Notes: generated by a model not told the origin, from the letters alone. Counted from the first letter of the stretch, positions 12,389 through 64,000 are shown. The stretch is DNA of 64,000 nt from Squalus acanthias (GCA_030390025.1 CM059432.1:37946001-38010000), one strand, 5' to 3'. A program made the numbers and translations.

Positions 12389-12666
12389 TGTGGCGGATCG
12401 CCACCTAAACGAGCATAATCCACTCTTCTGTCCGTGGAAAAAAATCCAGCACCTTCCCTTTAAGGCACCTTACCTTTAAGGCAGGAGTGGGCGGGGCCTC
12501 AGAGTTTACCCAGAGAATTCTGGGAGCTTTCGGTGTAGCCATTTTTGTGCCATGCAGTTGAATTAAAGTTTCTTGTTTTCCACATATGGATTCAGCCTCC
12601 ATTCGTGTTTCGCGGCAGCCTCAACATTGGTGACCCCGACGCTCAGAACGTATTCCGAGCACTGCA

Positions 12667-13335
12667 ATGGCGGACATGAACGCAGTTTCCGTGAAACTGC
12701 CGGAGTTTTGGGAAAACCAGCCCGAAGCCTGGTTTCTCCAAGCTGAATCTCGCTTCCGGCTGCGAAATATCACCACAGATGGGACGAAGTACGACTATCT
12801 CGTCACATCACTCGGTAGCGCCGCAGTTTCAAAGGTTTGGACAGCGCTGCAGAACCCACCAGAGGAAGGCAAGTACGCACATCTCAGGACAGCGCTCCTT
12901 AAAAAATTTACGGCCTCGGCATATCAGCGAAACTGCCACCTCCTCGACCTTCTAGGCCTCGGTGATGCCTCACCGTCAGACCTCCTCTCCCACATGCTCT
13001 CCCTCACCGACGAGAGCCCACCCGGATCACTCTTCCGCATGCTGTTCATCCGCCCGCTCCCTCTCAGCATCCGCCCAGCGATCGTGGCGTCCGGCCTCAC
13101 GAACCTGGAAGCCCTGGCCGATGAGGCCGACAAGCTGCTGTCCGCTCACTCCAGCCGCGACGTCACTCCGGACCTGGCAGCCAATGCCTGGGCGCGCCCC
13201 TCACTGGCAACCACGCGGCCACAAGGGCCAGCCACCAGGCCCACGGGCCTTCGCGCCCCACTAACCCGGGCCACTGTTACTACCACGCACGGTTCGGCGC
13301 CAGAGCACAACGGTGCACACCTCCCTGCTCTTTCA
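12667..13335 (+). CDS. gag: Gypsy Gag with CHCC knuckle (one frame change before the knuckle)
   Basis: AVSVKLPEFWENQPEAWFLQAE N-terminus; CYYHARFGARAQRCTPPC at 13275 lies in the pol frame. Confidence 0.85.
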
Positions 13336-13361
13336 AGTCCGCCCCCGTACCAGCCCCCGCG

Positions 13362-15593
13362 ATGGCCGTGGGCCACGCGGGCTCCCTGCTGTTCGTTACG
13401 GATGACAAAACCGGCCGCCAGTTCCTGTGCGACACTGGGGCTCAGCACAGCATCATCCCGGCCTCCTCCCTCGACATCCAAAAGGGCGAACGAGGACCGG
13501 CGCTGGCTGCTGCTAACGGCTCGGAAATCTGGACGTATGGCACCCGGACAGTCACCCTCGACCTCGCTGGTTGCCGCTACCGATGGGAGTTCATCACTGC
13601 CAAGGTGCTCTCCCCTCTCATCGGCGCAGATTTCCTGTGCGCCCACGGCCTACTGGTAGACATCCCCCGTCACCGCCTCGTGGACATGAACACCATGTCC
13701 CCCATCCTGGGCACCATGGCCCCCCGTCAACCCGCCGACATGGCGTCACAGTGCCACGCCCGGGCCACGGATGACTACTCGGCACTCCTGGCCGAATTTC
13801 CGGCCCTTACCAATCCGACCTTCTCCGCGGAGGCCGCCAAACACGGGGTGGAACACTTCATCCCCACCACAGGCCCACCAGTGTACGCCCACGCCCGCAG
13901 GCTGGACCCGACCAAACTGGAGATCGCGCGGACCGAGTTTGCCACCATGGAACAGCTCGGCATCATCCGCCGCTCCAACAGTCCCTGGGCCTCCCCACTC
14001 CACATCGCCCCCAAACCAGGCGGAGGTTGGCGCCCCTGCAGGGATTACTGCCGCCTCAACGACGCCACCACCCCTGATCGGTACCCCGTGCCGCACATTC
14101 AGGACTTCTCGGCTAGACTGGCCGGCCGCTCAGTCTTTTCCAAGGTCGACCTGGTGCGCGGCTACCACCAAGTCCCTGTCCACCCCGCGGACGTCCCCAA
14201 GACGGCCGTAATCACCCCCTTCGGCCTGTTCGAGTTCCTGCGGATGCCCTTCGGCCTCAAAAACGCGGCCCAGGCATTCCAGCGGCTCATGGACTCGGTC
14301 CTTCGGGACCTGAAGTTCCTGTTCATCTACCTGGACGACATCCTGGTAGCCAGTTCCTCCAAGCAGGAACACCTCGAACACCTTCGCATCCTGTTCGGGC
14401 GCCTCAGCGACCACGGGCTCATCCTCAGCCCAGCCAAATGCCAGTTCGGCCTGGACAAGATCGACTTCCTCAGCCACCACATCACCCATGCTGGGGCCAT
14501 TCCCCTGCCCACCAAGGTGCAGGCCGTCCAACAATTTCCCCGCCCCACCACCATCAAAGGCCTCCAGGAGTTCCTCGGGATGGTGAATTTCTATAACCGC
14601 TTCATCCCCAAAGCGGCGTCCCTCATGAGGCCCCTGTATGAAGCCCTCCGGGGCAGGAGCGGCAAGATGGCGGTCGAATGGACGGCAGACGCATCCGCCG
14701 CCTTCGACTCCACCAAGACCGCGCTCGCCAACGTCATCCTGCTCGCGCACCCACGGCCCAATGCCAGGGTAGCGCTCACCACGGACGCCTCCGACCACGC
14801 GGTCGGCGCCGTGTATGAGCAGTGGGTCGACGGCGCCTGGCAACCACTTGCCTTCTTCAGCCGCCAACTACGCCCCCCGGAGGTCAAGTACAGCACCTTC
14901 GACCGTGAACTCCTCGCGCTGTTCCTGGCGGTCCGCCATTTCCGGTTTTTGCTTGAGGGCCACCCCTTCACTGCGTTTGTCGACCACAAGCCCCTGACAT
15001 TCGCAATGGCAAAGACAACCGACCCCTGGTCCGCCAGGCAGCAGCGCCAGCTCGCGGCAGTGTCCGAGTTCACCACGGACATCCAACACGTCTCCGGCCG
15101 AGACAATGTGGTAGCCGACTGCCTCTCCCGCCCCGCCATCCACGCCGCACACCTGGCAGTCGACTACGCTCAACTCGCAGCAGACCAGATCACCGACCCT
15201 GATCTGCTCTCCGCACCCACCAACCTACCAGGGCTACGCCTGGCCGACGTCGCCTGTGGCCCGACCGCAGTCACGGTCAAGTGCAACATATCCCTATGTC
15301 AACCTCGGCCCGTTGTCCCAGCGTCCTGGCGCCGCCGGGTATTCGACATTCTCCACAACCTCTCCCACCCTGGCGCCCGCGCATCCATCAAATTGGTAGC
15401 CAACCGCTTCATCTGGCGCAGCCTTCGCAAGGATGTGCGCACTTGGGCCAACTCCTGCCTAGCCTGCCAACGGGCCAAGGTACAGCAACACACGAAAGCA
15501 CTCCTCGAGGAGTTTACCGTCCCCTCGCGGAGATTCGACCACATCCACGTGGACGTCGTTGGGCCCCTGCCGCCGTCGCAAGGCCACACGCAC
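13362..15593 (+). CDS. pol: Gypsy Pol (protease, RT, RNase H, integrase N-terminal part)
   Basis: FLCDTGA, KVDLVRGYHQ, MPFGLKNA, YLDD, TDASD, HNLSHPG...CLAC, HIHVDVVGPLP; cut at 15593 by the retroviral LTR. Confidence 0.95.
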
Positions 15594-17206
15594 TGTAAGG
15601 GATTCTGACCCTGCGTGTCTCGCAGCCTGTGAGATTCACGCGGCTCTGTGCAGCCTGTATGTCAGTGCGGGTCTAGGCCTTGTTGCCTGTTCTGGTCTCC
15701 AGCCAGTCTGGGAACACTAGACACACCTGTGAGTGGTTCGAATCACTCTCCCTTACGGTTCTAGACACTGGACTTAGATGCGAGAGCAGTAATGGAGATG
15801 AAACTCATGTAGACTTGGTTTGAATGGTACGAAATGGAAAATCTTTATTGCATGATACTTAAGATTATGAAATTCATGTCATAAGCACAGATTAATGACA
15901 GTACAATCTTACAGAGTTATATAGTCGATCTTAGGGAAACGAGGAACGAACGGCACAAAGTAAATAGGGGCACACATTACAAATATCCTTAATCCTTAAA
16001 CCCTCCCCTATCAATATCTATCCTAAACTAGATTCGTAGGATTTCGAGACTCATGCTCACCACTCGTGATAACTCGGAGAAATTCCGAATAGCTGATCGG
16101 ATGTTTTTCACCGCAGCACCCACGTGTCGGTCAGGAGATCTCCTGGTCCCACTTGTTTACTTGCTTCTGCTGCTCCGGCTAGCAGGCTGGACCGTCTGCT
16201 GTGATGAAGATCTATATTGGTTGGTTTAACAGGTACTCTTCGAGCACAGTTGTCGATATCGTCGATACGATATGTTTCCTTGCAAGTTCGAAGAAGTCTT
16301 CCTGGCGAGGAAAACTTGGCTAATCGACCTACAGGCGCGGTCGGGATTTACTGACCGTGGCGATGGATATGGTCTTCCTCTCTTCTCATCTCATCTCATC
16401 TCATCTCGGGCCTTCGGTTCCGCTGCCAGTTACCAACATAGGTCTTCGTTACGCGACACGAGGTAGATCCGAACGGATCAGAAAGTTCAACAGTCTTTTC
16501 AGAAGAGGCAACAGGCAAGCAGAAGCCCAACTACGAGTACACAGGGGCAGCCACGATGATAAGAGCAGCAAGAGAGAGAATGGACGGTTTGGAGCCTGCA
16601 ATTATAGTGCAAAATCTTCCGTTTCCCGCCCAACTATAATGTCCATTCTTTTGTTTAGGGTTTGGCGCTCAAATGTCTTGTATGGGTGATCTCCGTTCTT
16701 AATGGGTTTCGGGGCTACTCGTAAATGTCTGAGTACCTGTTAATATTTCTCCCATTGTTAAATCGGTCGGTGTTCTCCCTGGAGGGGTTTGGGGCTTCCA
16801 AGTGTCCTGTATAACTACCTGCTAACGGCTCTCTCATCGTAGAGTCGTTGGGATTTTACATATTAATGTCTTTTGGATGGGCCCTTGATTACTCGGTACA
16901 ATGGCTTTCCTTTGTACCTGGGAGACCGATTTCAGTATCTATGTGTATACTGCAAACCCATAATGTCTTGTGTATTATCTTCACTGTGCTGAATCTTAAT
17001 CGATCTTGCACAAATGTTTATTGGAACGCCATCTTGTCTGCCTGTTGAAAAGTCTAGAATGTTCTGTCACGAGGTGCGGCGGCCATTTTACAGGCTGCTT
17101 GTGTCCACTTTAAACCTGCCAGCATTCTACTGAAATAAAAGCTGTTTGAACGAAACTCTGTGTTTTCTCCTTATTAATAAAATCGCGATATATTGCGAAT
17201 TCTACA
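15594..17206 (-). repeat. 3' LTR (1613 bp)
   Basis: Direct repeat of 23277-24946; minus-strand AATAAA at 15844-15849; preceded by PPT-like AACAGGAGGGAC at 17207-17218. Confidence 0.95.
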
Positions 17207-17647
17207 GTCCCTCCTGTTGATGCGAATAACTCCGCTTATCGTATCAAAAATCATCGTGGTGAGCAATATTATCTCGATTTCTCTCCGAATCCAGTAAATT
17301 AATCCCATAATTTTTAACTTAGCTAGGGTCTCTGTGTCGTCCTTATTTCCCAAGAAAATCACATTTTATATCACCGTAGGCATTATTTGCCCTTAAACTT
17401 ACACCACTTGTTTTCCTTCCCGGCGTAACCAGGCCGATACCCCTCGTATCACCTGTATATTTGTCTTTTATTCAGGGAAAGGAAAAAACAAAACCCAAAA
17501 CCAAACAATCAACACCATCACCAAAATAATCAAACCCCAACTCTTAAAACATGTCGAGTTCCCAACGTATTTACAATCTCTGAAAATCTTATATGAGTAC
17601 AAACTTCCGCGGCGCACGCGGCGAGCGGGAGTGACGCCATTTTCCGA

Positions 17648-19999
17648 TTACACGGTGCTCTCATCGTGCACGCGCACGTAACGTTCTCGCCACTCTCCCG
17701 TGTTTTCATGCTTGGTGAGGCGCTTGTCTCTTTTACAATGTATGACCAATAGGTACACTACAATAAACACTTGACATACGACTAAAATGTGGGAGGCTAT
17801 TCTGATCCATGAAGGCACTTCAATATTAGTGAACAGATTCCACCACGGTGGAACTACTATGTCCATAATGTCTGTTCCTATTTCGACAGTTTTCTGCTCT
17901 AATGTATAAAAATGTTTCTGTGATACCGCGACGGCTTTCAGAAGTTTGGTTAAGTGTTCAGGGAGAGGGGGAATGAGGTATCCAAAATGCGCGACAAATC
18001 GCTGCAAGTCGGTGAAATTCTCTTTTACTGTGAGATGAACAGTGGATGGTTCAGGGATTGGGATAATTCGCTGTTGTGCTACTTGAACTTCAGCCCTGGG
18101 TTTAAAACAGAAACTGCTGTCACTCACCGGACACCGGCTACGGTTTCCATGCTGGTAGTGTTGCGCTGCAGTGGTAACACAATATGTTCCACCCCCGATG
18201 TATGCTACCTGCGGAGGCACATGATCTTGTGCCATTGCCTCCATGGTGCAATTCATGGACTTGGCGCCAGCCGTTCTGAACCCGCACTGTGGTGTTAAAA
18301 AGGCATTCAAGTGCTGGGGGCACAGTATTATGTGCGCTCCCCTGCCACGACAACCAGAGAGATCTGTACCTGTCATCGTTTGCTCCCAGCGGATGACGTA
18401 AGGTGGAACCGCTGCGTAACGAATGTGGGCTCCCCCCTGAATGACACCAATGTTCTCTACCCGATATACCGGGGCGGGCTTTGCTGTGTCGCCCAAAACC
18501 GGCATGCGTAATACTATTCCCATAATAGTATGGTTTGAACGTCCGCAGTCCACGGGGACTGGGTAAGCTTCTGAAGCTAGCCTGAGCTGGCACGGGTTTA
18601 ATGTGTTCTGAAAAGGGTGGAGCGCCCGTAGGTGTTTGTTACTTATCCAGGACGGAACCAAACCTTGTTTTAAATCCTCCAAATTACTGCGGCCCTCGCC
18701 CAGTAACCACGCCCCGTAAAGCACGCACACCTCGTTCTGCGCAGCTTGATCGGATGCATTCCGATCTTCCCTGATCAGGGCATTTACCGTACGCGCATGT
18801 TTCTCCAGCTCTGCTATAATTTCCTTTAAATGGAGAGTCATGGCTTGGTCCTCGTGTAAACCCGACCCTACCACTTTATTCTCATCTGTTAGAATGTCTT
18901 TTAACTGTGTTTTTAAACCATTAATCTGGGTCTGCAGCTCCACACTGTCTAGAGCGTTGACCACAGATGTCCCTGTGTTAAAAGCAGTGAACGCATCGTT
19001 CACCAAACCCCTTCTTTGCCTCCCTACTTGATCCAAAACTTCCTGCGGTGCGGTGTACAAACTTGTCTTATCAATTTCTGCAAAATCAAACTCGTAAAAT
19101 TGTCTGAACATCTTGGTCAACAGGACCTGATACAACTGTTCCGTCTTTTTGGGGCACCACTCTGGTAACCGTACCTCAGTGAGATTTAAAATCACCGAGG
19201 CCACCGCGTAATGTACCCCCTGAAAGAGTATCTGGTCTGTGGGGACCAGTACCAAACCATTCCCGGGTCCCTTACTAGTTTTAGGGCACCCTTCTTCCTC
19301 AGCTAGAACCACCGGAATCGTGGGCGGGGCTTTGCGTGGGCGCGTAATGAGTTCAGTGGCATTTACTGGGATCGGGGAGAATGGGGCTCCGCACCCCCTG
19401 GTGCTCGCATCCCACCTCATCCCCTGTCCGTTATCCTGCCATTGATTAATAAAAAATATGGAGATGCCTTTGGGGCAAACGTACTTTGACCCCCACATAC
19501 ATACATAAATTCCCTCATCCGGTTCCCACCATTTGTCCCAACAGACTTTCACTTGTCCGTCTGTCCCCGTAATTGTCCGATGGGTATTATTACCCAGTCG
19601 TTCCCACTCGACCGAAGAGTTTCTCATAGTTTTGCTCAGCTTTCGCAGCCACCACCATCGGCTCAATGGGACCTTCCCACTACAAGTCAAACAAATCCGT
19701 TTGCCGACGGTGACGCTGATCCTGGGTGCGATGATCCTTACTTTGGGGCACAGTAAAGAAGTCTCTTGGTAGGCAAACCCCGATGTGCTGGAATACTCCG
19801 TTGAGTTCGTTCCCAGCCATCCTGGCCACCTTCCCTTGTGGAAATAGGTGCTGGTCCCCTCTGCCTTCCGTCTTCCGGTCCCATCCACCGCGATGGGGGC
19901 CGTGTCCCCGGAACATCCAAACACCACGACATCCTTGGTGCGGCCTCGATAGGCCAATCCACATCCGATTGCCACGAGCAATACTAGAATTCGTTCCAT
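17648..19999 (-). CDS. env: Envelope glycoprotein: signal peptide, Ig-like domain, class I F-type fusion protein, TM anchor (ORF open from 20158)
   Basis: MERILVLLVAIGCGLA signal; CLTC...WWW...DEGIYVC; furin site RQRR (19010-19021) followed by GLVNDAFTAFNTGTSVVNAL and a heptad repeat; Cys-rich region; C-terminal hydrophobic ILVVCQVFIVVYLLVI. Confidence 0.88.
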   Translation of the reverse strand: MERILVLLVAIGCGLAYRGRTKDVVVFGCSGDTAPIAVDGTGRRKAEGTSTYFHKGRWPGWLGTNSTEYSSTSGFAYQETSLLCPKVRIIAPRISVTVGKRICLTCSGKVPLSRWWWLRKLSKTMRNSSVEWERLGNNTHRTITGTDGQVKVCWDKWWEPDEGIYVCMWGSKYVCPKGISIFFINQWQDNGQGMRWDASTRGCGAPFSPIPVNATELITRPRKAPPTIPVVLAEEEGCPKTSKGPGNGLVLVPTDQILFQGVHYAVASVILNLTEVRLPEWCPKKTEQLYQVLLTKMFRQFYEFDFAEIDKTSLYTAPQEVLDQVGRQRRGLVNDAFTAFNTGTSVVNALDSVELQTQINGLKTQLKDILTDENKVVGSGLHEDQAMTLHLKEIIAELEKHARTVNALIREDRNASDQAAQNEVCVLYGAWLLGEGRSNLEDLKQGLVPSWISNKHLRALHPFQNTLNPCQLRLASEAYPVPVDCGRSNHTIMGIVLRMPVLGDTAKPAPVYRVENIGVIQGGAHIRYAAVPPYVIRWEQTMTGTDLSGCRGRGAHIILCPQHLNAFLTPQCGFRTAGAKSMNCTMEAMAQDHVPPQVAYIGGGTYCVTTAAQHYQHGNRSRCPVSDSSFCFKPRAEVQVAQQRIIPIPEPSTVHLTVKENFTDLQRFVAHFGYLIPPLPEHLTKLLKAVAVSQKHFYTLEQKTVEIGTDIMDIVVPPWWNLFTNIEVPSWIRIASHILVVCQVFIVVYLLVIHCKRDKRLTKHENTGEWRERYVRVHDESTV

Positions 20000-20012
20000 C
20001 CTTCCTTGGTTC

Positions 20013-20085
20013 CTGTGATCAGATAGAATGAGGTAGCCAGCCTCGCAAGAGTCTCTGGCTTTTGTGAAGGGTGAGCGGGTCCCCT
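20013..20085 (-). promoter_or_regulatory. Putative env splice acceptor
   Basis: TTCTATCTGATCACAG|GAACC just upstream of the signal-peptide ATG; acceptor and upstream CCCGCTCACCCTTCACAAAAGCC conserved at 59166-59235. Confidence 0.6.
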
Positions 20086-20311
20086 GACCTCGCCTCACGT
20101 AAACTTCAACGTTTGCTGAATAAACTTCCTCTAAACCTAACCTTACAACTCCCATCATTCATCGTTTTCTGTTAAAAACACTACAAACTTGGCCTTATTA
20201 AAATTACAACCTTAACCTTGAACTATAAACTTAAAACTTAACCTTGTTACTTATAAACTTAAAACTTAAAACTATAACTTTACAGTGCCGCCCGTTCTCA
20301 GGGCGGCCCCT

Positions 20312-21460
20312 TTAAATTCTGAGAAGGCTGCTGCGAGCTCTTCCCGACGGTGGGAGGGCACTGACCCTTCCCTCTGATCTGCCGCAGCCTGTTGCTGCGC
20401 TGACTCTTCCCTCTGATCTGCCGCAGCCTGTTACTGCTGCGATGTGGCCGGTCTGTACCCGGGTTATCTTAACCTGAAGTCTACGCCTTGGGGCAGTCTG
20501 GGGACATGACCACATCCTCCTGGGCTGGGGTTCTCTGCTTGACCTACGGGGAGTTGCTATGGGCGGGGGTTCCGTGACGGACGGACCGGGTTCCGAGACC
20601 TCCAACGGGATGACCTGGGGTTCCATCACAGTCGCCGGCTCCGCCTCCGCTGACTCCGCCTCCCTAACCTCGGGGCTGGCAGTTCGTGGCTCCGCCCTGC
20701 TCGGCCCAGCAAGCGGCCCTTCACTCGTGATCTCTGCCTCCCCTGAGGACTGGACGTTCAAAGCGGGCGGCCACATCTCTGGGAGCCACATCGGTACTCT
20801 CTGTGCTCCTATAGCGGCTGGCCCTGCCTCCTCTAGCTCCTCCCTCCTGTCCTCGGGACCTGCAGCTGGTGTGTCCACCCTGTGTGGATCTCTACCTATA
20901 GGCCCCATTCCCCCCAGACCGTTCCTCAGGAACCACCCGTCATCATCACTATGCTCATCTGCACTATCCTCATCTGACCAGGGTACCCTGGGTTCTTCCT
21001 CATCTAACCCCCAACTCCAGAAAAACGCTGCATGATCGTCCGGGATGTCCCTTCCCCTGATGCAAGCTGCTATGCCTGCCTGTGTGCCTTGTGGTCCTAC
21101 CTGGGGCTGTGCTTTCCCATTGGCGGGATTTACCCCTGTAGTTTTCCCCTGCGCACCCGGCTGGTACAGTTTGCATTGGTTTACATCCTCATACTCCCGG
21201 CTTTTGGCTACCCTGTAGGCTGCTTTTATCTCACTAAGCTGCGCTTCTAGCCTGAGCACGTCTAACTTTCCCATTGCTCGGGCGTTCTCCTCCCGCAGGG
21301 CCTGCTCTCTAAGCTGCCCTTCCAGCCCATCTATTTTCCCTATTAAGCGGGCGTTCTCCTCCCGCAAGGCCTGCTCTTTTAACCTGGCCTCCTCACCGCA
21401 GACCCCCTCCTGTGCGTGTCTTTTAAAAGGACACAGGTAGGCAGGCTGCGTGGGCTCTAG
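20312..21460 (-). CDS. Residual pol-frame ORF (~382 aa): Pol N-terminal stub + coiled-coil + integrase C-terminal and acidic/Pro-rich tail; in frame with gag
   Basis: No stop from 21460 to 20312; LEPTQPAYLCP and VNQCKLYQPGAQG match the two ends of pol in the 58-64 kb copy. Confidence 0.75.
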   Translation of the reverse strand, partial: LEPTQPAYLCPFKRHAQEGVCGEEARLKEQALREENARLIGKIDGLEGQLREQALREENARAMGKLDVLRLEAQLSEIKAAYRVAKSREYEDVNQCKLYQPGAQGKTTGVNPANGKAQPQVGPQGTQAGIAACIRGRDIPDDHAAFFWSWGLDEEEPRVPWSDEDSADEHSDDDGWFLRNGLGGMGPIGRDPHRVDTPAAGPEDRREELEEAGPAAIGAQRVPMWLPEMWPPALNVQSSGEAEITSEGPLAGPSRAEPRTASPEVREAESAEAEPATVMEPQVIPLEVSEPGPSVTEPPPIATPRRSSREPQPRRMWSCPQTAPRRRLQVKITRVQTGHIAAVTGCGRSEGRVSAATGCGRSEGRVSALPPSGRARSSLLRI

Positions 21461-23272
21461 TCATTGGGTACTATTAGACGGTCCTGCGGCACCTACGGGG
21501 CCGGTTGCGACCGCCACCTGTCCACGCGCATTCAAGACTAGCTTGCGCATGGCTCCTAACACTGCTTCGAGGTCGTCGGGAGGGGTGGGTGCCTTGGCTT
21601 CCTTAGCCGGGACCGGCGCCTGGGCTCGCACCGCGGGATTTTTATCCTTGGAATCCTTCCAAGGGTTCCTGCAATGCTTGCGCCAGTGCCCTGTCTTCCC
21701 ACACCCGTAACAAGCATTACTTGCCTGTGGGGCGCGATTACCCTCCTGATGCCACTCTCTTTGATACGGGGCTGCGGGTCGTACCTCATGTACTCTTCCC
21801 TTAAAGGGACGTGTCGTCATACCCCTTATATTACGATAACCTAACGTGAGTCGATTCAAGACCGACTCTTCCGTAAGGTTGAGGTCATTGGGATCAAACC
21901 ATGCTTTTGCCTGCTCTCTAACGGCTGGTAAACTGTTGGCTATTATGCACCTAAGCCAATGAGTTAAAGCGGCGCCTTCCACATCTTCGCGCTCGGGCGC
22001 ACCTAGACAGCTGCGCTCATATACTGGCCACAGCCTGTCGGCAAAAACCTTCGGGGGTTCTCCCTCCATCTGCACTGTCTGTCCCACTCTAGCAAACGGA
22101 CCTCCGTCGTTCGCCCCCAACACTTCCAGGACCTCATTCTTTAATTCCTCATAACTCTTGGTTCCCCTCTTGCTCTCGCCTGAGAGACACTGAAGGACCG
22201 AGCTGTCTAATGAGAACAGCAGCATTTTTGCTGTTTTCCCATCATCGCAGCCGTTAATGGCCGCGGCTTGCTCAACTTCTCTGAAATGTACGGAAGGGTC
22301 GTCTGCCTCGGTCAGCTTCCGTACGTGATTTATCATAGCTCTCAGCTGATGTGAACTGTGAGGCAACACCAGCTGTCCGAGGAGATCCCCCGGTTCTTCC
22401 CCACCGTTTCTGCTTGGGCCCCTTTTAATACCCGTTACTGGATACAGCGATCCCTTTTCTACTTCCTTTTCAATGGGCTCTTTTGTTTCTTCCATTGCTT
22501 CCTCCCTAACCCAGGTTTCTGAATAGCTGGGTGGCGCGGAGGGCGCAGTGGCTACTACTTCTTCTGCTTTACTTGGTGGGGATTTTCTAAATCTCTCATT
22601 TACTAGCGGCTGGTGCGCCGACGGATTGATAAGGCACACCATGCCGTTCGCATTGTTCACGGCCTTTTTGAGGTTCTCTATCTCCCTTTGGCAGGCGCTA
22701 TGGTCGGCTCCCTGAAACTTATCCTCAAGGGCCAACTTATATGCCGACCTAACCCCCATTAAGCTCTCTTCTTGAGTTCTTATCTGGGCAGCTTGGCGGT
22801 TACATCTTTCCTTTAACCTGCTCTCATTCAATTTTGCCTCAGTGACCTGGCACTCGAGATAATCTATCCTTGTTTTAAGGTGACTGGAGACTTCCTGGCT
22901 TTCCTGGTGTAACTCATTTAAATTCTTAATGAGCACCTCCCCTCCAGAAACCTTCTCCTCCATTTCTCCCTCTAAATGACTGATTCGAGCTACTAGCGCT
23001 GTAATGGTCTGGTTTGAAATCTGAACCTGCCTTTTGTAGCACATAAGCCAGACTGCTTTTTCGACTGTCTTTTTATGTTCCTTACTATCTGTCCACCTTT
23101 CGGCTGCCTCTAGTGGACTCTTATCCGCTAACAATTCACTTATCCATTTCTTGGTTAGATTAACCTTTCCAAACACATAATCCGCTATCTTTTCCTGCAT
23201 AACATTTCGTACAGTCATTCCAAAATCTAACACACTACCCTCTCGCTGCCAGTGTCCTGCCGCGGTCGCCAT
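21461..23272 (-). CDS. gag: Gag, 603 aa from the first ATG: coiled-coil region, capsid-like region, CCHC knuckle
   Basis: CYGCGKTGHWRKHC; PSAPPSY late-domain-like motif; heptad-rich N-terminal half; located between PBS and the pol frame. Confidence 0.9.
   Translation of the reverse strand: MATAAGHWQREGSVLDFGMTVRNVMQEKIADYVFGKVNLTKKWISELLADKSPLEAAERWTDSKEHKKTVEKAVWLMCYKRQVQISNQTITALVARISHLEGEMEEKVSGGEVLIKNLNELHQESQEVSSHLKTRIDYLECQVTEAKLNESRLKERCNRQAAQIRTQEESLMGVRSAYKLALEDKFQGADHSACQREIENLKKAVNNANGMVCLINPSAHQPLVNERFRKSPPSKAEEVVATAPSAPPSYSETWVREEAMEETKEPIEKEVEKGSLYPVTGIKRGPSRNGGEEPGDLLGQLVLPHSSHQLRAMINHVRKLTEADDPSVHFREVEQAAAINGCDDGKTAKMLLFSLDSSVLQCLSGESKRGTKSYEELKNEVLEVLGANDGGPFARVGQTVQMEGEPPKVFADRLWPVYERSCLGAPEREDVEGAALTHWLRCIIANSLPAVREQAKAWFDPNDLNLTEESVLNRLTLGYRNIRGMTTRPFKGRVHEVRPAAPYQREWHQEGNRAPQASNACYGCGKTGHWRKHCRNPWKDSKDKNPAVRAQAPVPAKEAKAPTPPDDLEAVLGAMRKLVLNARGQVAVATGPVGAAGPSNSTQ
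23254..23271 (-). promoter_or_regulatory. Primer binding site, tRNA-Arg(TCG)
   Basis: TGGCGACCGCGGCAGGAC, 5 nt after the LTR end; complementary to the vertebrate tRNA-Arg(TCG) 3' end GTCCTGCCGCGGTCGCCA (recalled). Confidence 0.85.
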
Positions 23273-23276
23273 TTTC

Positions 23277-24946
23277 TGTAAGGGATTCCTGACCCTGCGT
23301 GTCTCGCAGCCTGTGAGGTTCACGCGGCTCTGTGCAGCCTGTATGTCAGTGCGGGTCTAGGCCTGGTTGCCTGTTCTGGTCTCCAGCCAGTCTGGGAACA
23401 CTAGACACACCTGTGAGTGGTTCGAATCACTCTCCCTTACGGTTCTAGACACTGGACTTAGATGCGAGAGCAGTAATGGAGATAAAACTCATGTAGACTT
23501 GGTTTGAATGGTACGAAATGGAAAATCTTTATTGCATGATACTTAAAATTATGAAATACATGTCATAAGCACAGATTAATGACAGTACAATCTTACAAAC
23601 AGTTATATAGTCGATCTTAGGGAAACGAGGAACGAACGGCACAAAGTAAATAGGGGCACACATTACAAATATCCTTAATCCTTAAACCCTCCCCTATCAA
23701 TATCTATCCTAAACTAGCTTCGTAGGATCTCGAGACTCATGCTCACCACTCGTGATAACTCGGAGAAATTCCGAATAGCTGATCGGATGTTTTTCACCGC
23801 AGCACCCACGTGTCGGTCAGGAGATCTCCTGGTCCCACTTGTTTACTTGCTTCTGCTGCTCCGGCTAGTAGGCTGGACCGTCTGCTGTGATGAAGATCTC
23901 TGTTGGTTGGTTTCACGTACCAGTCTCCTTAGACACAGTCCCGTTATCGTCGATGCAATATGTTTTGTTAAAAGTTCAAAATAGAAATCTTCCTGGCGAG
24001 GAAAACTTGGCTGATCGACCTACAGGCGCGGTCGGGATTTACTGACCGTGGCGATGGATATGGTCTTCCTCTCTTCTCCTCTCATCTCATCTCATCTCAT
24101 CTCATCTCGGGCCTTTGGTTCCGCTGCCAGTTACCAACATAGGTCTTCGTTACGCGACACGAGGTAGATCCGGACGGATCAGAAAGTTCAACAGTCTTTT
24201 CAGAAGAGGCAACGGGCAAGCAGAAGCCCAACTACGAGTACACAGGAGCAGCCACGAGGTTACGAATCGACCGGATAAAACACAGGAGCAAGCGAGCGAA
24301 TGCAAGAGCAAGAGAGAGAATGGACGGTTTGGAGCCTGCAATTATAGTGCAAAAATCTTCCGTTTCCCGCCCAACTATAATGTCCATTCTTTTGTTTAGG
24401 GTTTGGCGCCCAAATGTCTTGTATGGGTGATCTCCGTTCTTAATGGGTTTCGGGGCTACTCATAAATGTCTGAGTGCCTGTTAATATTTCTCCCATTGTT
24501 AAATCGGTCGGTGTTCTCCCTGGAGGGGTTTGGGGCTTCCAAGTGTCCTGTATAACTACCTGCTAACGGCTCTCTCATCGTAGAGTCGTTGGGATTTACA
24601 TATTAATGTCTTTTGGATGGGCCCTTGATTACTCGGTACAATGGCTTTCCTTTGTACCTGGGAGACCGATTCCAGTATCTATGTTTATACTGCAAACCCA
24701 TAATGTCTCGTGTATTATCTTCACTGTGCTGAATCGTTATCGATCTTGCACAAATGTTTATTGGAACGCCATCTTGTCTGCCTGTTGAAAAGTCTAGAAT
24801 GTTCTGTCACGAGGTGCGGCGGCCATTTTACAGGCTGCTTGTGTCCAATTTAAACCTGCCAGCATTCTGCTGAAATAAAAGCTGTTTGAACGAAACTTTG
24901 TGTTTTCTCCTCATTAATCAAATCGCGATATATTGCGAATTCTACA
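23277..24946 (-). repeat. 5' LTR (1670 bp)
   Basis: TGTAG...TTACA on the minus strand; direct repeat of 15594-17206. Confidence 0.95.
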
Positions 24947-25629: not shown

Positions 25630-28600
25630 TTATTTGTTCTTGGGATATGGGCACACGGACGTGACTGCATTTATTGACGATCTCTAGGGGCCTTCTTCTT
25701 GAACCACTGCAGTCCTTGTGGTGATGGTGCTCCCACACTAGTGTTAGGCAGGGAATTCCTCAATATTGACCCAACGATGCTGAAGGAACAGGGATGTCCA
25801 AGTCAGGATGGTAAGTGACTTGGAGTGTAACTTGGAGGTGATGGTGTTCCCATGATATTGCTGCTCTTGTCTTCATTGGTGGTAAGGAGGTGCTGTAGAA
25901 GTAAATGTGGTGAATTGCTGCACTGCATCACATAGATCACATATAATACAGCCACAATGTGCCTGCAATAGAGGGGGTGGATATTGAATTCAGTGGCATG
26001 GGTGCCGATTAAGCGAACTGCTCTGTCCTGAATGTTGTTGAGCATATTGAATGTTTTTGCAGCTGCACCTATGCAGGCTATTTATGAGCATTCTATCACA
26101 TTCCTGACTGAAGCCTTGTAGATAGAATCATAGAATGACACAGCACAACTCTGCGTTTTTTTTCCCTTCAAGTATTTATCCAATTCCCTTTTGAAAGTCA
26201 CTATTGAATCTGCTTCCACCACCCTTTCAGACAGTGCATTCCAGATCACAACTCACTGTGTAAAAAAATGTCTCCTCTTGTCGTCTCTGTTTTTTTGGCC
26301 AATCTTAACTCTGTGTCCTCTGGTTACTGACCCTTCTGCTATTGGAACAGTTTTTCCTTATTTACTCTATCAAAACTGTTTATGATTTTGAACACCTCTA
26401 TCAAATCTCCTCTTAACCTTCACTTCTCTAAGGAGAACAATCCCAGCTTCTCCAGTCTCTCCAAATAGCTGAAGTCCCTCATCCCTGGTACCATTCAGGT
26501 AAATATCCTCTTCACCCTCTGGTGGAGAAGCTTTGAGAGGTCAGGAAGTGAGCCACTTGTCACAAAGTACTCAGCCGCTGCCCTTCTATTTTAGCTATGG
26601 TGTTGATATTGTAAAATTCGCAAATTATCACGATTTCGAAATAACGAGAAAGAGAGATACAGATTCGTTAAAACAGTTTTATTTCAGCAAAATGCTGTCA
26701 GGTTTCAAAACGGACACAAGAAGCCTGTAAAATGGCCGCCGCACCTCGTGGCAGAAGTTTCTAGACTTTTCAGTAGGCAGACAAGATGGCGTTCCAATAA
26801 ACAAGATTGGACAATGCTCAGCATAGATTGATATAAGACAAGACGCGATCGTTTTGCATTTTGACACCTAAGCAAGAATTATAAGTACTGGAATCGGTTC
26901 TCCATGCACAAACGAGGGCTATTGTACTGAGCAATCAAGGGCCCATCCAAAGACATTGATACGCAAATTCCCCGCGGCTCTACGATGAGAGAGCCGTTTG
27001 CGGGTACTCACAGCAAGAATTCGGAGGCCCCCAAAACCCCTCCAGGGAGACTCCTAGCCGGTTCCACAATGGGAGAAATATTAACGGGTACTTAGACAGT
27101 TACAAGTATCACCGAAACCCATTAACGACAAGAACCACCCCATACAAGAAGTTTGAGCGCCAAAACATGACAAAAGATGAACATTAAGATTGGGCGGGAG
27201 ATAAGGAATTACAGTACTATAACTGTAGTGTCCAAACGTCCATCGCTCTCTTATTCTGTCATTCGCTTGGAATCGACTCTTGGCTCTTATCCCGGACGAC
27301 CGTTATTCTCTCTTGTTCCGCTGATCCCTTTTTGGGGTCGACCTCGTGGCGCGCTGCGAAATCGGGTGCACCATCCCGAAGGTCGGTAAACGGTGTCTGG
27401 ACCCGAAGGCCCGAGGAGATGAGATGAGATGAGAAGAGAAGAAGAAGAATCCACGTGCCGCCGCGGTCAGTAAACCCCGACCGCGCCCGTAAATATAAAG
27501 ACCATTTTTGAACTCTACAGGTTACTGCATGAACTGGTCAAAGACTCTTCTTTGAATTCTACCGGCTAACTGGTGTCGGTCCAGAAAGACTTTTCTTTGA
27601 GTTCTACAGCCGGGCCCGAGCACTGTCGAGTTCTTCATGACAACGGGGAGCCCAGCCTGCTTGCAGCAGCAGAGAAAATAAACAAGTGGGGTACAGAGAC
27701 CCCTGGTCAACACGTGAACGGTCAGGTGTTGCAGCGAAAACAGCCGAGCACCGTTTTAGAATTCTCCGAGGTATTACGAGTGGTGAGCATGTTTCTAGAT
27801 CCTACAGATCTAGATTAGAGCAGGCATTGATAGGGGAGGGGGGTTTATTAAGGATAATTATAATGTGTGTCCCCTTTTTCGATGTGTCGTGTGCTCCTCG
27901 TTTCCCTAAACCTAGTTTAATAAACGTATGTAAGCTTGTACTGTCATTAATCTGTGCTCATGACATGTATTTCGTAATTCTGAACAATATGCAATAAAGA
28001 TTTCCATTTCGTACTATTCAACCGGGTCTACCTGAGTTTTCTCTGCATTACTGCTCTCGCACCTAAGTCCAGTTTCAGAACCGTAAGGGCGAGTGGGTCG
28101 AACCACTCACAGGTGTTTAGTGCTACAAGGCTGGCTGGAGACCAGAGCAAGCAATAGTATTAGGCAACAAAGGCCTAACCCCGCACAAGCACCCTGAACC
28201 GTAACCCCTTACAATATGGCTGATCCTGTTAAGCTTTTATTCAATGGTGGTCCCCAATATGCTGATAGTGGAGATCTCAGTAATAGTGGTGCCATTGAGT
28301 GACAGGATAGATGACTGGGCTTTCTTCTGTTCAAGAGGATCATTACTTGGAATTTATTTAGTGTGAATGTTATTTGCCATTTGTTAGTTCAAGCCTAGGT
28401 GTTGTCTTGGTCCTGCTGGAGGCTGACATGGGCTGCTTCATCATCAGTGGAGTTTAAATGGAGCTGAACACTAAAATTGTCAGTGGATCAGCCCCTTTCC
28501 TGATCTTATGACAGAGCTGAAGATGATTGGGCCGAGATCTTCAGCAGTGATGTCCTGGGACTGCGATGGTTGGCCTCTGATAACCATAACCATCTTCTTT

Positions 28601-58433: not shown

Positions 58434-59153
58434 GTTTTAGGGCACCCTTCCTCCTGAGCCAAAGCCACCGGAATCGTGGGCGGAGACTTGCGTGGGCGCG
58501 TGATGAGTTCAGTGGCGTTTACCGGGATCAGGGAGAATGGAGCTCCGCACCCCCGAGTGCTGACGTCCCATCTCACCCCTTTCCCGGCATCCTGCCACTG
58601 TTGTAGGAAAAATATGGATATACCCTTGGGGCAAACGTACTTCGATCCCCACATACAAACATATATTCCCTCATCCGGCTCCCACCATTTGTCCCAACAG
58701 ACTCTCAATTGTCCGTTAGTCCCCGTAATTGTCCGATGGGTATTGTTACCCAATCGTTCCCACTCGACCGAGGAATTTCTCAGTCTTGCTTAATTTCCGT
58801 AACCACCACCATCGGCTCAATGGGACGTTCCCATTGCACACCAAACAAATCCTTTTGCCGACGGTGACGCTGATTCTGGGTGCAACGATCCTCACCCTGG
58901 GACACAGTAAAGAAGTCTCTTGGTACGCAAACCCGGATGCGCTGGAGTATTCCGTCGAATTCGTTCCCAGCCATCCCGGCCACCTTCCCTTGTGGAAATA
59001 AGTGGCGGTTTCCTCAGCCTTTCGCTCCCCGGTCCCATCCGTCGCGATGGGGGCCGTGTCCCCGGAGCAACCGAACACAATGACATCCTTGGTGAGGCCC
59101 CGATAGGCCAATCCACATCCGATCGTTGCGAGCACCACCAGAATCCTTTCCAT
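58434..59153 (-). pseudogene. env: env 5' fragment (signal peptide + Ig-like domain), frameshifted
   Basis: MERILVVLATIGCGLA...CLVC...WWW...DEGIYVC...EEGCPKT, closely similar to the first env. Confidence 0.88.
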
Positions 59154-59429
59154 ATCTCCTGGTTCCTGTGATCAGATAAAATGATGTAGCCAGCCTCCCA
59201 AGAGTCTCTGGCTTTTGTGAAGGGTGAGCGGGTCCCTTGACCTCGTCTCCCGTACAAGACATGTATACTGGATAGATCTTAACTGTTCCTATCACTAACT
59301 CCCATCATTTTACCATTCACTTACAAAATTAAACTACATTCTTAACCGGGTAATTAAAACACTATATAAACCTAAACTTATCCTCCTAAAATAACTGTAC
59401 AGCGCCGCCTGTTCCCAGGGCGGCCTAGC

Positions 59430-62400
59430 TAAATCCTGAACAAGCTGCCACGAGCTCTTCCCCGTTGCGGGGGACACTGACCCTTGTCTTTGATCCGCCG
59501 CAGCCTGTCTCTGCTGAGCTGGGACTGGGACTTCCCTGGGCTGCCTTGAACTTACCCCTGGGGGTGTACGAGGGATCTGACCACAACTTCCTGGGCTGGG
59601 GTGTCTGACTCGACCTGCGGAGGGCCACCTTGGGCAAGATCTCCAGGACTGACGGACCGGGACTTCCGCCGTCACGGCCTGTGGTCCCACCACAGCCGCC
59701 GGCTCTGTCTCCCCTGGCTCCGCCCCCCTGGGCTCGGGATCTGCGGTTTCCGACTCCACCCTACTTGTTTCTCCAGTAAGTGGAACTCCACTCGCAATCC
59801 CTACCTCCCCTATGCTTGGGTCGAGGGCGGAACCTCCGTCCTCCGACCCCACCACCTCTCCGACCGGGTCACTAACTTGGTTGAGCCCTCCGAGCTCTTT
59901 CTCATCTGAATCCCAAGAAAAAGAAAAGATCCTACACTTTTCCAGAATGTCCTCTCCCCTCACGCAGGCTGCTTTACCGGCCTGTGTGCCCTGCGGTTCT
60001 ACCCGGGGCTGAGAGTCCCCACTCGCAGGTTTGGCCCCTGTGCACCCGGTTTATACAGCTTGCACTGGTTAATGTGGAACCATTTTGTGCGCCGGGGTAC
60101 CTTTACGGCATACACCATGGGACTCGCCTTATCTACAATACTGTAGGGTCCCATATATAGCGGCTCCAAACTCCCTACTCTGGCATAGTTCCTAACCATG
60201 ACCTGATTTCCGACTTCCCACTCCTGCTTCTTACGGGGTTCCAGCAACAGGCGATTGCCCTGATGCTGTCTTCCCATGTTCCCAGCCGCCTGCTCGTAAA
60301 CCTGCTTCAGGCGTTCCAAGAGGGTCTGGACAAACTTGTCCTGTTTCACCTCTTGGAGCTGACCTCAGTGAGCACCGGGGCTAGTACATGCGTGGGGGTT
60401 CGCATGATCCTCCCAGTCATCACCTCGTACGGGGAATACCCCGTACTCTTCGACTGGCTGGCCCGGATTCCCATGAGGACTAGAGGCAGGACCTCCGCCC
60501 ATTTTTGGGGCGAGTTCATAGTCTCTTTCCTCAGTTTTTCCTTGAGGGTCCGGTTCATGCGTTCAACAATCCCTGATGACTGGGGATTGTTAGCCACTTC
60601 CCTTCAATGCCCAAAAGCATGAGGGTGTTCTGCATCACCTGGCCGGTGAAATGACTCCCTTGGTCTGACTCCACGAAACGGGGAAGTCCCCACCGCGAGA
60701 ACACTTCCCGGACCAAGATCTTGGCAGTACCCAGCGCCGTAGCTGTTCTACAGGGAAAGGCTTCTACCCACTTGGAAAACACATCCACCAGGACGAGGCA
60801 GTATTTGTAGCCTCCCTGGGTGGTGGGCAGGGGCCCTATGTAATCGATTTGTATCGACTGCCATGGTCCCTCCACCCTCCTGATGTGCCCCATGTGCACT
60901 TTCCTTTTCTGGGGGTCTGGGTTGTTTGCAGCGCACACAAGACAGCTTGCACAGAACTCGCGGACCTGATCCCTGAGTCCCGGCCACCATCCCGCTTGCT
61001 CTACCCGTTGCCAGGTAACCTCAGGCCCGGGGTGCCCTGCCCCTGGCCCTTCATGAGCCAGCTGGAGGATTCCCTCCTGTGCTGCTGTGGCACAACCCAC
61101 TGTTCCTCGTGGAACAGCATGCCTTCTTTAACGGAGAGGGTTGCCGTACTGTACGGGACCTCTACCTGCTTGCCCTCAGTAATCGTTCTGAGAACTGCTT
61201 TTAGGGCGGGATCCTGGCTCTGGACGGTCTTAAGGTCTAGTGGCAGTGCTACCCTGGTGTTCCCGGGATTCCCTTCCCTGCCTTGGATCGCTGCCACGGG
61301 TCCATAGGGGTCCCAGAAAATGCCGTTACGGGCACCCTCCCTGGCTAGCGCATCCGCCTGCTGGTTGCCCTCCCCGCGGGTTCTGTGGAGGAGTGAGCCT
61401 TCACCTTGTGGATGAAAATCTCCCCTTCCTCCCCCACTGCTGCTAGGATCTTTTCCAGCAAGGGCTTCACCGTTAAAGGTCGCCCGTCCGCGGAGGTGTA
61501 GCCACGGCGGGACCAAATGGCCAGGTATTCCGTACACGAATTGCACGTAAACATACTGTCCGAACAAATCGTGTATGGGGTTGGCAAGATCTCTGGGTGG
61601 GTAACTGCGTACGCCACCGCAGACAGCTCAGCCTGCTGCGCGCTCATCGTGCTGGGGAGTTTAATTGCCAAGACAAGGTCTGCCGCAGGGTCATAAACTC
61701 CACACCCTGTGAGTCGTTCGCCAGCGGACACTGTGCTGGAACCATCGACATAAATCTCGCGGCCCGTGGGATGTATCCCGGCCCGCAAACCTATGTTGAC
61801 CTCCCACACCCCTTCAACCTAACACTGGTGGGCTGTTCCGGGGTATACCAGGTTGGCCGCGAGCTTGGGCTCGCAAAGACCTTTAACTCTGAGATCCATC
61901 TGGGAAAGGAGAAGGGTCCAGCACGCAATGTGGGTGCTGCTTACGGTCCCATCCTTAATCCTCCCATCCAGAAGCATCTTGGTTGGCGTGTGATGGGTGA
62001 GGAGAGTGATGGGAGAGAGCCCTGTGAAGATCGCTGATCTTTTCACAGCCCAATGCGTGGCTAAAAGATGCCTTTCGCAGTTGGAAAACTCCTTTCCACA
62101 TCCGTTAACACCCTGGATGAATAAACAACCGGCCTCAGCCTGCCGTGACGCTCTTGGAGCAGCACGGCGCTCAAGCTATCTCTGCTGGCGGCTACCTCCA
62201 GGAAAAACTCCTTCCCCCCAACTATGGCCCCTAAAGCTGACGCGGTCTGCAGATCCCTTTTTAACTTCTCGAATGCTGCCTGACAACCCTCGTCCCAAGA
62301 CCACTCCACTCCCTTATGGAGGAGTCGGAGCAGTGGAGCTGCTGTGGCCGCATAGTCTTCGATGAAGTCTCTGCAGTACCCGGTCAGTCCCAGAAAGGAC

Positions 62401-63679
62401 CTCACACCCGTTATGGTGTTGGGAATCAGTAACTCCTGCACTGACTCCCTCCTAGCCTTATCTATGGCTCTTTCCCCAGCGCGAATGGTCAACCCCAGGA
62501 ATTTTACTTCCTGCTGACCGATCCGTGCTTTCTTAGGGTTCACTTTAAAACCCTTTCTCGCTAGCAGCTCCAATAACTCGGCCAGCAGTGGTCCATGCTC
62601 CTCCCTTGAATCTGTGAACGGGAGCAAATCATCCACGTACTGCACTATCTGATTGGGCTGACTAAACTCCTTTAAACTTCCTGCCATACACTGATGGAAA
62701 ATACTGGGGCCGTTGTGGAAACCCTGTGGCAAACAGTTCCATGTGTACTGTTGTCCTTTGAAAGTAAAGGCAAACTTGTACTGGTCCTCTCGCCGCAGCG
62801 GGATGGACCAAAAACCGTTCGAGATATCCAGCACCGTGAACGTGGTCGCGGACGCTGGGATACCCCCTATTAGGTCAGCAACTGCTGCTACTGTGGGCGC
62901 GCAGGCGGGGATGTTACTGTTAAGGACTCTGTAGTTCACCGTGGCCCTCCACGAATTATCCGGCTTCCTTACCGGCCATAATGGGGAGTTCACGTGTGTG
63001 GCTATCGGCCTCAACATGCCCTGCTGCACCAATGAGGACATTGCTGTCTCCATGTCGGGTTCTGCTTCTTTGGGGAAGTTATACTGCTTTTGGAGCCGGG
63101 TCATGGGGTCCCCGTCTACGCTGACCTCAAACCCGGTAACCCTTCCACAATCGTGCTTGTGGGTTGCAAACGCGTGCATATTATCTGACACGTACGTTTG
63201 CATGTCTGTTGGGACATCCGCGACCATAAGCCCAAGGTCGTAACCTCCGGATGGCTTCATGGTACACAGGGCCCCTTTTCCTTCTTTCCCTGGGATTACA
63301 ACTACCTTGCCTTTCCCACCCTTGGCTCCCCAGAGACAGTGATTCCTAAGGTCCACGAGGATCCCGTGTTCCGCTAGGAGATCCGATCCGAGGATACCTT
63401 TGCCACCCCCCTCTTGCCATTTCATCAGGATGCACTTCCATGTGGTGTGGAGTGCTCCTAAATGAATGGAGAGCGGAATGGAGAATGCGCCAGCCTGCTC
63501 TTTTCCTGTGAACCCTGCTAATGTGAATGGGACCTTGATAGACAGTGGTGAGTCAAAGGGGCTATCTGTATGAATCACGGTGCATGAAGCTCCCGTGTCC
63601 AACAAGTAACTACCCTTCTGCTTCTCTACCTCCATCTCCAGCTGAGCGGACACAGGTAGACGGGCTGCGCGGGCTTTAG
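59430..63679 (-). pseudogene. pol: Retroviral pol with several frameshifts
   Basis: YLLDTGAS; LDISNGFW; LPQGF; YVDD; degenerate RNase H FFLEVAAS; second RNase H IYVDGSS/SAQQAEL/ICSDS/KVKAHS; HHCC; IDYIGPLP; SDQGSHF; VERMNRTLK; GPY. Confidence 0.92.
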
Positions 63680-64000
63680 TCATTGGGTACTGGTGGGCGG
63701 GGTTGTGGCATCTGTGGGGCTGGTAACGACTGCCACTCTCCCGTGCAAAATCATAAGAGACCGCATGGCTCCTAACATTGATTCTATCGCATCGGGATGG
63801 ATAGGCACACCAGCTCCTTTCTCAGAGACAGGCGTTTGGGCTCGAACTGCGGGAGCTTTTTCCCTGGAGTCCTTCCAGGGATTCCTACAGTTTTTACGCC
63901 AGTGACCTGTCTTCCCGCACCCGTAACAAACACTACTGGTTTGTGGGGCGCGATTACCCTCCTGATGCCACTCTTTCTGAGCTGGAGCTGCGGGCTTTGC
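63680..64000 (-). CDS. gag: Gag C-terminus (partial)
   Basis: EWHQEGNRAPQTSSVCYGCGKTGHWRKNCRNPWKDS...STQ-stop, homologous to the first gag. Confidence 0.88.
   Translation of the reverse strand, partial: AKPAAPAQKEWHQEGNRAPQTSSVCYGCGKTGHWRKNCRNPWKDSREKAPAVRAQTPVSEKGAGVPIHPDAIESMLGAMRSLMILHGRVAVVTSPTDATTPPTSTQ

Follow-up and report, generated by a model that had tools for sequence, protein, structure and literature searches.

A young, high-copy endogenous retrovirus family of Squalus acanthias lacks pol and carries an open frame behind a putative readthrough stop codon

Within a 64,000-nucleotide stretch of the Squalus acanthias genome (GCA_030390025.1 CM059432.1:37946001-38010000; hereafter "the window", always meaning the whole stretch), a provirus on the minus strand at 15594-24946 reads long terminal repeat (LTR)-gag-UGA-CUAG-ORF2-env-LTR, with all three frames open. 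ORF2, a second open reading frame behind the gag stop codon, consists of a protease remnant, an insert that takes the place of pol, and the tail of Pol. The provirus belongs to a young, high-copy endogenous retrovirus (ERV) family, and we have little doubt that this family combines a pol-less architecture with dependence on helpers. Our preferred reading, to which we assign a probability of roughly 45%, is that these elements are helper-dependent satellites whose open frame is kept because translating through it aids their own RNA in cis more than the residues themselves matter.

The pol-less family is real and well replicated. The genome contains 960 exact matches to the junction of protease remnant and insert, compared with 1290 to the intact protease junction (both counts take in tandem copies and unplaced contigs), and we therefore rejected a unique or artefactual junction. 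Among 20 close copies, taken from the 40 top similarity matches, 18 possess a 4-bp target-site duplication (TSD) of their own, while the analyzed stretches of the other two do not span both ends. The LTR pairs are 0-6 mismatches apart in 17 of the 18 close copies measured. The non-autonomous multi-copy lineage postulated in the original prediction, which had been made from the window alone, is thus supported by separate TSDs and by the junction count. Two LTRs, a tRNA primer site and a TSD (in the 18 of 20 sisters, though not in the window copy) identify these elements as proviruses, and the lack of an own pol, the recent independent insertions and a matching helper identify them as non-autonomous ERVs. 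Both kinds of element also occur in tandem arrays (C16:35.63-35.65 Mb, C1:143.65-143.67 Mb and others), with a period of ~7.75 kb for pol-less and ~11.1 kb for pol-bearing units.

Features of the window copy and of its pol-bearing relative in the window:

23277..24946, minus strand: 5' LTR, TG...CA, ~1.67 kb
23254..23271, minus strand: 18-nt primer binding site able to pair with the 3' end of a host tRNA, Arg(TCG) by eye; overlaps the gag ATG
21461..23272, minus strand: gag, 603 aa, ATG at 23272, stop-to-stop frame 21461-23356; comprises a long N-terminal helix (predicted), a capsid-like domain and a CCHC knuckle
21457..21463, minus strand: UGA-CUAG stop context, predicted readthrough site
21391..21454, minus strand: predicted RNA hairpin spanning +10 to +73 relative to the stop, 3' arm inside the insert
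21428..21460, minus strand: protease remnant, 11 codons
21184..21427, minus strand: insert in place of pol, ~81 codons, including a 23-codon tandem duplication
20312..21183, minus strand: last integrase residues and acidic, Pro/Arg-rich Pol tail, 94-98% identity with helper tails
20312-21460, minus strand: ORF2, stop-to-stop, 382 aa
17648..19990, minus strand: env, 780 aa if begun at the likely start of the signal peptide; stop-to-stop 17648-20158, in-frame ATG also at 20158
15594..17206, minus strand: 3' LTR, with a short purine-rich tract in front of it
58434..64000, minus strand: decayed pol-bearing relative of the older subfamily A, extending beyond the window end

Gag stop codon and readthrough context

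Most of the layout that had been predicted for this locus was confirmed. The gag frame ends in STQ-TGA-CTAG and then stays open for the 382 codons of ORF2, and gag, ORF2 and env are all free of stops in their stop-to-stop frames. The first 11 residues behind the stop, described as similar to those of the pol-bearing copy, match the start of the protease in pol-bearing copies. DNA similarity to that copy is lost at ~21429 and returns at ~21181-21184, from where the end of ORF2 matches it as claimed. Pfam detects no protease (PR), reverse transcriptase (RT), RNase H or integrase (IN) in ORF2, and finds all of them in the pol-bearing copy.

The way in which pol is expressed had seemed ambiguous, as the protease of the decayed window copy continues in the -1 frame. 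This is explained by a 25-nt deletion: the decayed copy is 25 nt shorter here than most of its sisters (401 vs 426 bp). In 21 of 29 junction rows from 30 pol-bearing loci, the gag frame continues past TGA-CTA through the protease start and as far as the region of the LLD-T/M-G motif, so that Pol is in frame with Gag in most copies; the remaining eight rows show local deletions or early stops. Frameshifting or reinitiation was consequently rejected as the mode of pol expression, the -1 frame being private to the decayed copy. Stop-free frames of 1437-1496 codons reaching through the tail were found in 2 of 15 pol-bearing stretches of one set and 1 of 3 of another. Short deletions just past the protease start are shared among the pol-bearing loci L050, L053, L055-L057, L059-L061, L095 and L096; they lie near the pol-less junction, where a rearrangement hotspot is possible.

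TGACTAG is kept in 28 of the 29 distinct insert-bearing junction stretches. UGA-CUAG is a leaky context, with about 1.3% or more readthrough in human genes (PMC13517186), and we infer that it is also read through in the pol-less family. The stop context is identical to that of type II UGA-CUA(G) readthrough in alphaviruses and mammalian genes (PMC13517186), and a hairpin is predicted from +10. The retroviral readthrough contexts given in the passages concerned are UAG-G, UGAAGA, UGACGA and UGAAGU. In the commonest pol-less variant, the hairpin from +10 to +73 has a z-score of -2.7 in a segment of 134 nt and of -1.9 to -2.7 in 75 nt; rarer pol-less variants give a weaker signal, and in pol-bearing copies it does not reach significance. 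A search of sequencing runs listed no RNA run containing the sequence. Contigs of runs whose RNA nature is only guessed cover the junction and contain no clear env splice joint; neither result was counted as evidence. For window positions 21000-21600, sequencing runs under four coded organism labels, which may not be different species, contain 65-85% of the sampled words.

Helper subfamilies and exchange of the Pol tail

The pol-bearing copies fall into subfamilies A (like the decayed copy in the window), B and C. Subfamily B is 73% identical to the ORF2 tail of the window copy. Subfamily C, with 568 motif matches in the genome, is much closer: four short C stretches and pol-less elements share 99.5-99.75% identity where the LTR ends and gag begins, 97.7% where gag ends and 99% within the tail. 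Across the sampled stretches, helpers have the LTR, primer site, gag and tail in common with the pol-less copies at 97-99.7%. A matching source of helper Pol, as postulated, is thus at hand, and subfamily C is likely the helper of the pol-less family. Helper Pol comprises PR, RT, tether, RNase H and IN domains according to Pfam.

Among the tails of 30 insert-bearing copies, two are 96-97% identical to B, several are 97-99% identical to C, and many are intermediate. Because tails match B in some copies and C in others, the same insert sits on different helper backgrounds, which we interpret as the outcome of recurrent recombination between RNAs packaged together. Tail swaps of this kind would result from packaging of pol-less RNA together with helper RNA and Gag-Pol. 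The shared sequence and the exchanged tails suggest that helper Pol mobilizes the pol-less elements.

Origin of the insert

The insert had been said to resemble the Gag of the element. The homology is real, but it is to the Gag of another family: over 41 ungapped residues, 17 are identical to the Gag of family D of this genome and 18 to P0026, as opposed to 11 for the element's own Gag. Searched with a profile of the Gag N-terminal region, the insert scores 25.4 bits (best of 1000 shuffles, 18.5; reversed sequence, 11.6). By these scores, the insert has its homologue in the terminal part of the N-terminal Gag coil of a more distant family. Family D (L213-L215) is a further multi-copy family with a related Gag, and has clustered copies on C6 near 46.6-47.2 Mb. 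The DNA identity of its gag with the insert is only 61-65%, and the exact donor was not found.

Other sources were considered and dismissed. Derivation from the own gag or pol was ruled out, as no DNA or tblastn match to the insert was found in the pol-bearing loci examined or elsewhere in the element. The lokiretrovirus 'smc' gene was rejected; in one supplement entry it sits upstream of gag. The case for the insert beginning with an inverted copy of the sequence behind the stop is weak (61/2000 shuffles), and that for a protease relic there is not significant (850/2000 shuffles). A homolog search with ORF2 found none, and its best look-alike by ESM (0.81) is uninformative.

The duplicated segment noted in the insert is a real internal duplication of 69 nt (23 codons), and this unit is triplicated in one copy. 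The predicted heptad-like coiled coil stood in part: no clean heptad register was detected in the insert (best a/d aliphatic fraction 0.30), and what remains is the homology to a Gag segment modelled as a long helix. Since no register was found, the label "coiled coil" derives from this Gag homology (helix model of residues 68-183). In a longer junction class, represented by 12 chromosome-1 copies including L179 and L183, ~28 extra codons (ORF2 nt 265-355) replace the integrase end; they have no match in the loci examined.

Selection on the open frame

In samples ranked by similarity to the insert, the insert appeared invariant, which was an artefact of the ranking. Copies were therefore resampled by the gag-stop motif alone, yielding a chromosome-1 sample of 32 of the 45 listed copies of the motif type (left out were ten already similarity-ranked copies, one tandem neighbour and two others). 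The insert is present in 30 of these 32; 27 have ORF2 open over 358-405 codons, one extends beyond the end of its stretch, and two are truncated. The insert-ranked search gave frames of at least 368 codons in 131 of 150 copies.

The claim that selection keeps the frame open is supported by in-frame length variants, in-frame junctions and a deficit of stops. Four different 3' insert junctions (in 9, 8, 12 and 1 of 30 copies) are all in frame, as are a 6-nt length variant and the third repeat unit within the insert. Shared length variants are multiples of three in 11 of 11 cases in ORF2 (64 copies), compared with 6 of 49 in non-coding sequence (34 full-length copies), and no gag or env frameshift is common to two of the 34 full-length copies. 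The tail has no stop among 253 shared codon alleles, where 9.9 would be expected; the corresponding value for the insert (0/24, 1.0 expected) is uninformative. We consider it probable that the open frame is under selection in the pol-less lineage itself and, if so, somewhat the better bet that translation matters more than the sequence being translated.

The frame might instead be open passively, descending from one in-frame founder that is too young to have decayed and whose tail is refreshed by helper recombination. The very young LTR pairs would fit this, as would tails up to 99% like those of helpers, length variants that are present in helpers too, a ratio of nonsynonymous to synonymous substitutions (dN/dS) near 1 in the tail, and one frameshift recurring at three loci. 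However, the events specific to the insert (3' junctions, duplication, triplication and 6-nt variant) cannot come from a pol-bearing helper and are all in frame, non-coding indels are mostly out of frame, and the stop context persists in 28/29 stretches. We regard a passive frame as unlikely.

Selection could also act on the extended Gag protein itself, in which Gag, the captured coil and the disordered Pol tail would take the place of Gag-Pol in particles and serve as a scaffold, a spacer or the carrier of a basic targeting motif. Calculated from shared variants, dN/dS is 0.34 in gag, 0.10 in env and 0.96-1.2 in the tail; the tail of pol-bearing copies has 0.86, near neutral apart from the first 50 columns. 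The non-enzymatic role suggested for the Pol tail is thus unsupported as far as a sequence-specific role is concerned, with dN/dS ~1 and tails re-acquired from helpers. Disordered tails can tolerate substitutions and yet not truncation, which speaks for the extended Gag. The insert, moreover, is read in the Gag-homologous frame, was duplicated in frame and is retained while tails swap; its dN/dS is 0.56, and an RRS-R-PQPR-W motif is visible in the tails of subfamilies A, B and C. Yet the constraint on the insert is not significant (p = 0.12), and a 25-column window with most of the motif has a dN/dS of 0.87-1.16, even though tails were chosen for having the motif. The native frame of the donor is also the one likeliest to be stop-free, and the choice of frame is hence no proof of protein function; in addition, the insert lacks a clean heptad register and ORF2 has neither homologs nor informative look-alikes. 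An extended Gag selected as a protein is the main rival to our preferred reading, though we consider it rather unlikely.

According to the helper-dependent satellite reading that we prefer, ribosomes would pass UGA-CUAG at a low rate, helped by the predicted hairpin. The own Gag and Env of the pol-less element would build particles, and helper Gag-Pol would drive replication. The open frame would act in cis, either by stabilizing the RNA against nonsense-mediated decay or through a cis-preference like that of the mouse intracisternal A-particle (IAP) 1Δ1 elements. The IAP 1Δ1 fusion is reported to act in cis (PMC6466679), and readthrough elements are reported to shield RNA from nonsense-mediated decay (PMC10141005).

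Several observations weigh against this interpretation. ORF2 is open in 33 of 34 full-length copies (gag in 26, env in 21, all three in 16), but these were chosen by similarity and are biased to young, intact copies. Shared variants are not independent events. Because recombination with helpers imports variants that have already been filtered, the open tail and the dN/dS of gag, env and tail are not clean evidence, and selection acting on the pol-less RNA is cleanly attested only by the events at the insert junctions; even these may stay in frame via switching guided by homology. Near ORF2 nt 530, outside any long homopolymer, a deletion of 1 nt occurs at three unlinked loci that differ from each other by 4-11 nt and lie outside the 64-copy set, which suggests that a broken tail can sometimes spread. 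The dN/dS of the insert (0.56-0.63, p = 0.12-0.19) leans to protein constraint. Finally, even with readthrough, ~4 kb of 3' sequence would remain untranslated, and protection from decay would be partial.

The family could, furthermore, be kept for a host function, such as a role of Gag or Env in development, with ORF2 as a passenger. There is a precedent in BHIKHARI, whose Gag from young pol-less copies is needed in zebrafish embryos (bioRxiv 2024.03.25.586437). Nevertheless, hundreds of dispersed recent insertions and the tandem arrays fit selfish spread, and a single conserved orthologous locus was neither sought nor seen; we deem a host function very improbable. A more far-reaching description, which we find rather doubtful, is that of a satellite retrovirus with its own capsid and envelope that borrows only the enzymes. 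Its Pol slot would have become a new structural protein made of a distant-family Gag coil and a Pol tail, behind a rebuilt readthrough hairpin, and this module would have been carried across successive helper subfamilies.

Gag, Env and known relatives

The structural model of Gag has a single helix at residues 68-183 and a capsid-like domain, with a mean predicted local distance difference test score of 74. Its best Foldseek rows are murine leukaemia virus capsids with E-values of 0.003-0.005, weaker than the cut of 0.001. Gag is 51% identical to a protein of the skate Rhinoraja longicauda, and other named relatives are from catshark, horn shark and Xenopus. By language-model features, Env resembles F-type class I fusion proteins: its ESM look-alikes are Baculo_F, Gypsy env and Fusion_gly (0.93-0.95), the Pfam Fusion_gly match in a sister env is weak (E 0.035), and RQRR stands upstream of a hydrophobic stretch. 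A comparison with the sequences in PDB gave no match. Near the fusion peptide, this F-like Env (17648-19990) is by eye like that of lokiretroviruses, and it is partnered with the snakehead retrovirus (SnRV)-type RT of the pol-bearing relatives. An F-like Env has been put forward as a lokiretrovirus feature (PMC7947760).

The helper RT falls on the retrovirus side of the tree, with a 100/100 split from the gypsy rows (51 rows, midpoint root; deep nodes unsettled). The best named matches of helper Pol are NYNRIN-like proteins of frogs and coelacanth (40-43%). Compared by eye with a printed alignment of SnRV, which is not in the tree, the helper RT has LDISNGFWSI, LPQGFH and QYVDD in common with it. 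Against the lokiretrovirus rows in the supplement of PMC7947760, again by eye, it lacks the R-x-PFGY-x-NS / IYVDD signature, and an assignment to lokiretroviruses was dropped. By eye, the helper RT is accordingly snakehead-retrovirus-like and not that of a lokiretrovirus.

The RT motifs and the combination of tether and RNase H are shared with SnRV-like ERVs (clade Huo) and with the elephant shark CmiERV lineage I (PMC6001957, PMC4422223); the elephant shark is a known host of SnRV-like ERVs. SnRV has an in-frame stop between gag and pol, according to a review, as do the pol-bearing copies. The context in SnRV is UAG-GGC, in contrast to UGA-CUA here, and the family additionally has a long Pol tail and a pol-less satellite. 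Features in common with lokiretroviruses and BHIKHARI (PMC7947760; bioRxiv 2024.03.25.586437) are an F-like Env, NYNRIN/CGIN1-like matches of Pol, dual RNase H, a coiled-coil Gag N terminus and young pol-less families, although none of six chondrichthyan genomes was positive for lokiretroviruses in PMC7947760. Bik-1 contains gag as its only ORF and Bik-2 lacks both pol and env, unlike the pol-less family with its gag and env; these zebrafish elements are gag-only, helper-dependent ERVs (bioRxiv 2024.03.25.586437).

Mouse IAP 1Δ1 is likewise non-autonomous, with an in-frame gag-pol fusion that acts in cis, and dominates new insertions (PMC6466679). It is, however, a plain deletion that includes part of gag, and most IAPs are without env; neither a captured segment nor stop readthrough is mentioned in the passage concerned (PMC6466679). 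Koala, cattle and mouse harbour helper-dependent ERVs whose central part has been exchanged: in RecKoRV, bovine ERVK[2-1-LTR] D-type and ETn/MusD, it is replaced by a piece of another retroelement, and trans-complementation and recombination with helpers occur (PMC10924933). Intact ORFs are absent from the bovine D-type, and those pairs retain only portions of the flanking genes (PMC10924933), whereas in the pol-less family gag, env and the replaced frame are open.

The window copy and its surroundings

The window copy is atypical. Because it has no TSD and its two LTRs differ by 44 mismatches and 65 gap positions, it probably arose by recombination of two insertions. A Ty3/gypsy element at 12634-15593 is broken off in its integrase at the 3' LTR, and its remainder is absent from the window; this fits a deletion via recombination between two proviruses. 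On the plus strand at 26610-28154, an LTR-like stretch with ~72% identity lies in the opposite orientation, probably as a solo LTR left by an older subfamily.

At 23254-23276, the gag ATG overlaps the primer binding site, 4 nt past the LTR, without a leader between LTR and gag; packaging signals would thus sit in the LTR or in gag. The relatives P0001 and P0003 have start residues similar to those of the window gag. The complement of the primer site combined with a tRNA arm motif has 422 genome matches, those listed being mostly tandem and on one contig. One 96-nt match reads by eye as tRNA-Arg(TCG), lacking the 5' end and with an apparent intron; ARAGORN made no tRNA call on this fragment. 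A large tandem array at C26:39-42 Mb, with a period of ~1623 bp, consists of a tRNA-Arg(TCG)-like gene, apparently with an intron, that corresponds to the primer site.

Significance of the pol-less family

Neither this family nor its layout was described in the literature searched, most subscription papers and Repbase lying outside that search, and no report was found there of an ERV that keeps gag and env and has its readthrough frame refilled by a foreign Gag coil. Known helper-dependent ERVs mostly lose genes, whereas the pol-less family still has both gag and env, has filled its Pol readthrough frame anew and is nearly as numerous as its helpers. The pairing of an SnRV-like RT with an F-like Env bears on the origin of retroviral envelopes. 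With ~960 replicates, the family offers a natural test of two questions: for what reason a defective retroviral RNA has to remain translatable in cis, and which function long disordered Pol tails serve.

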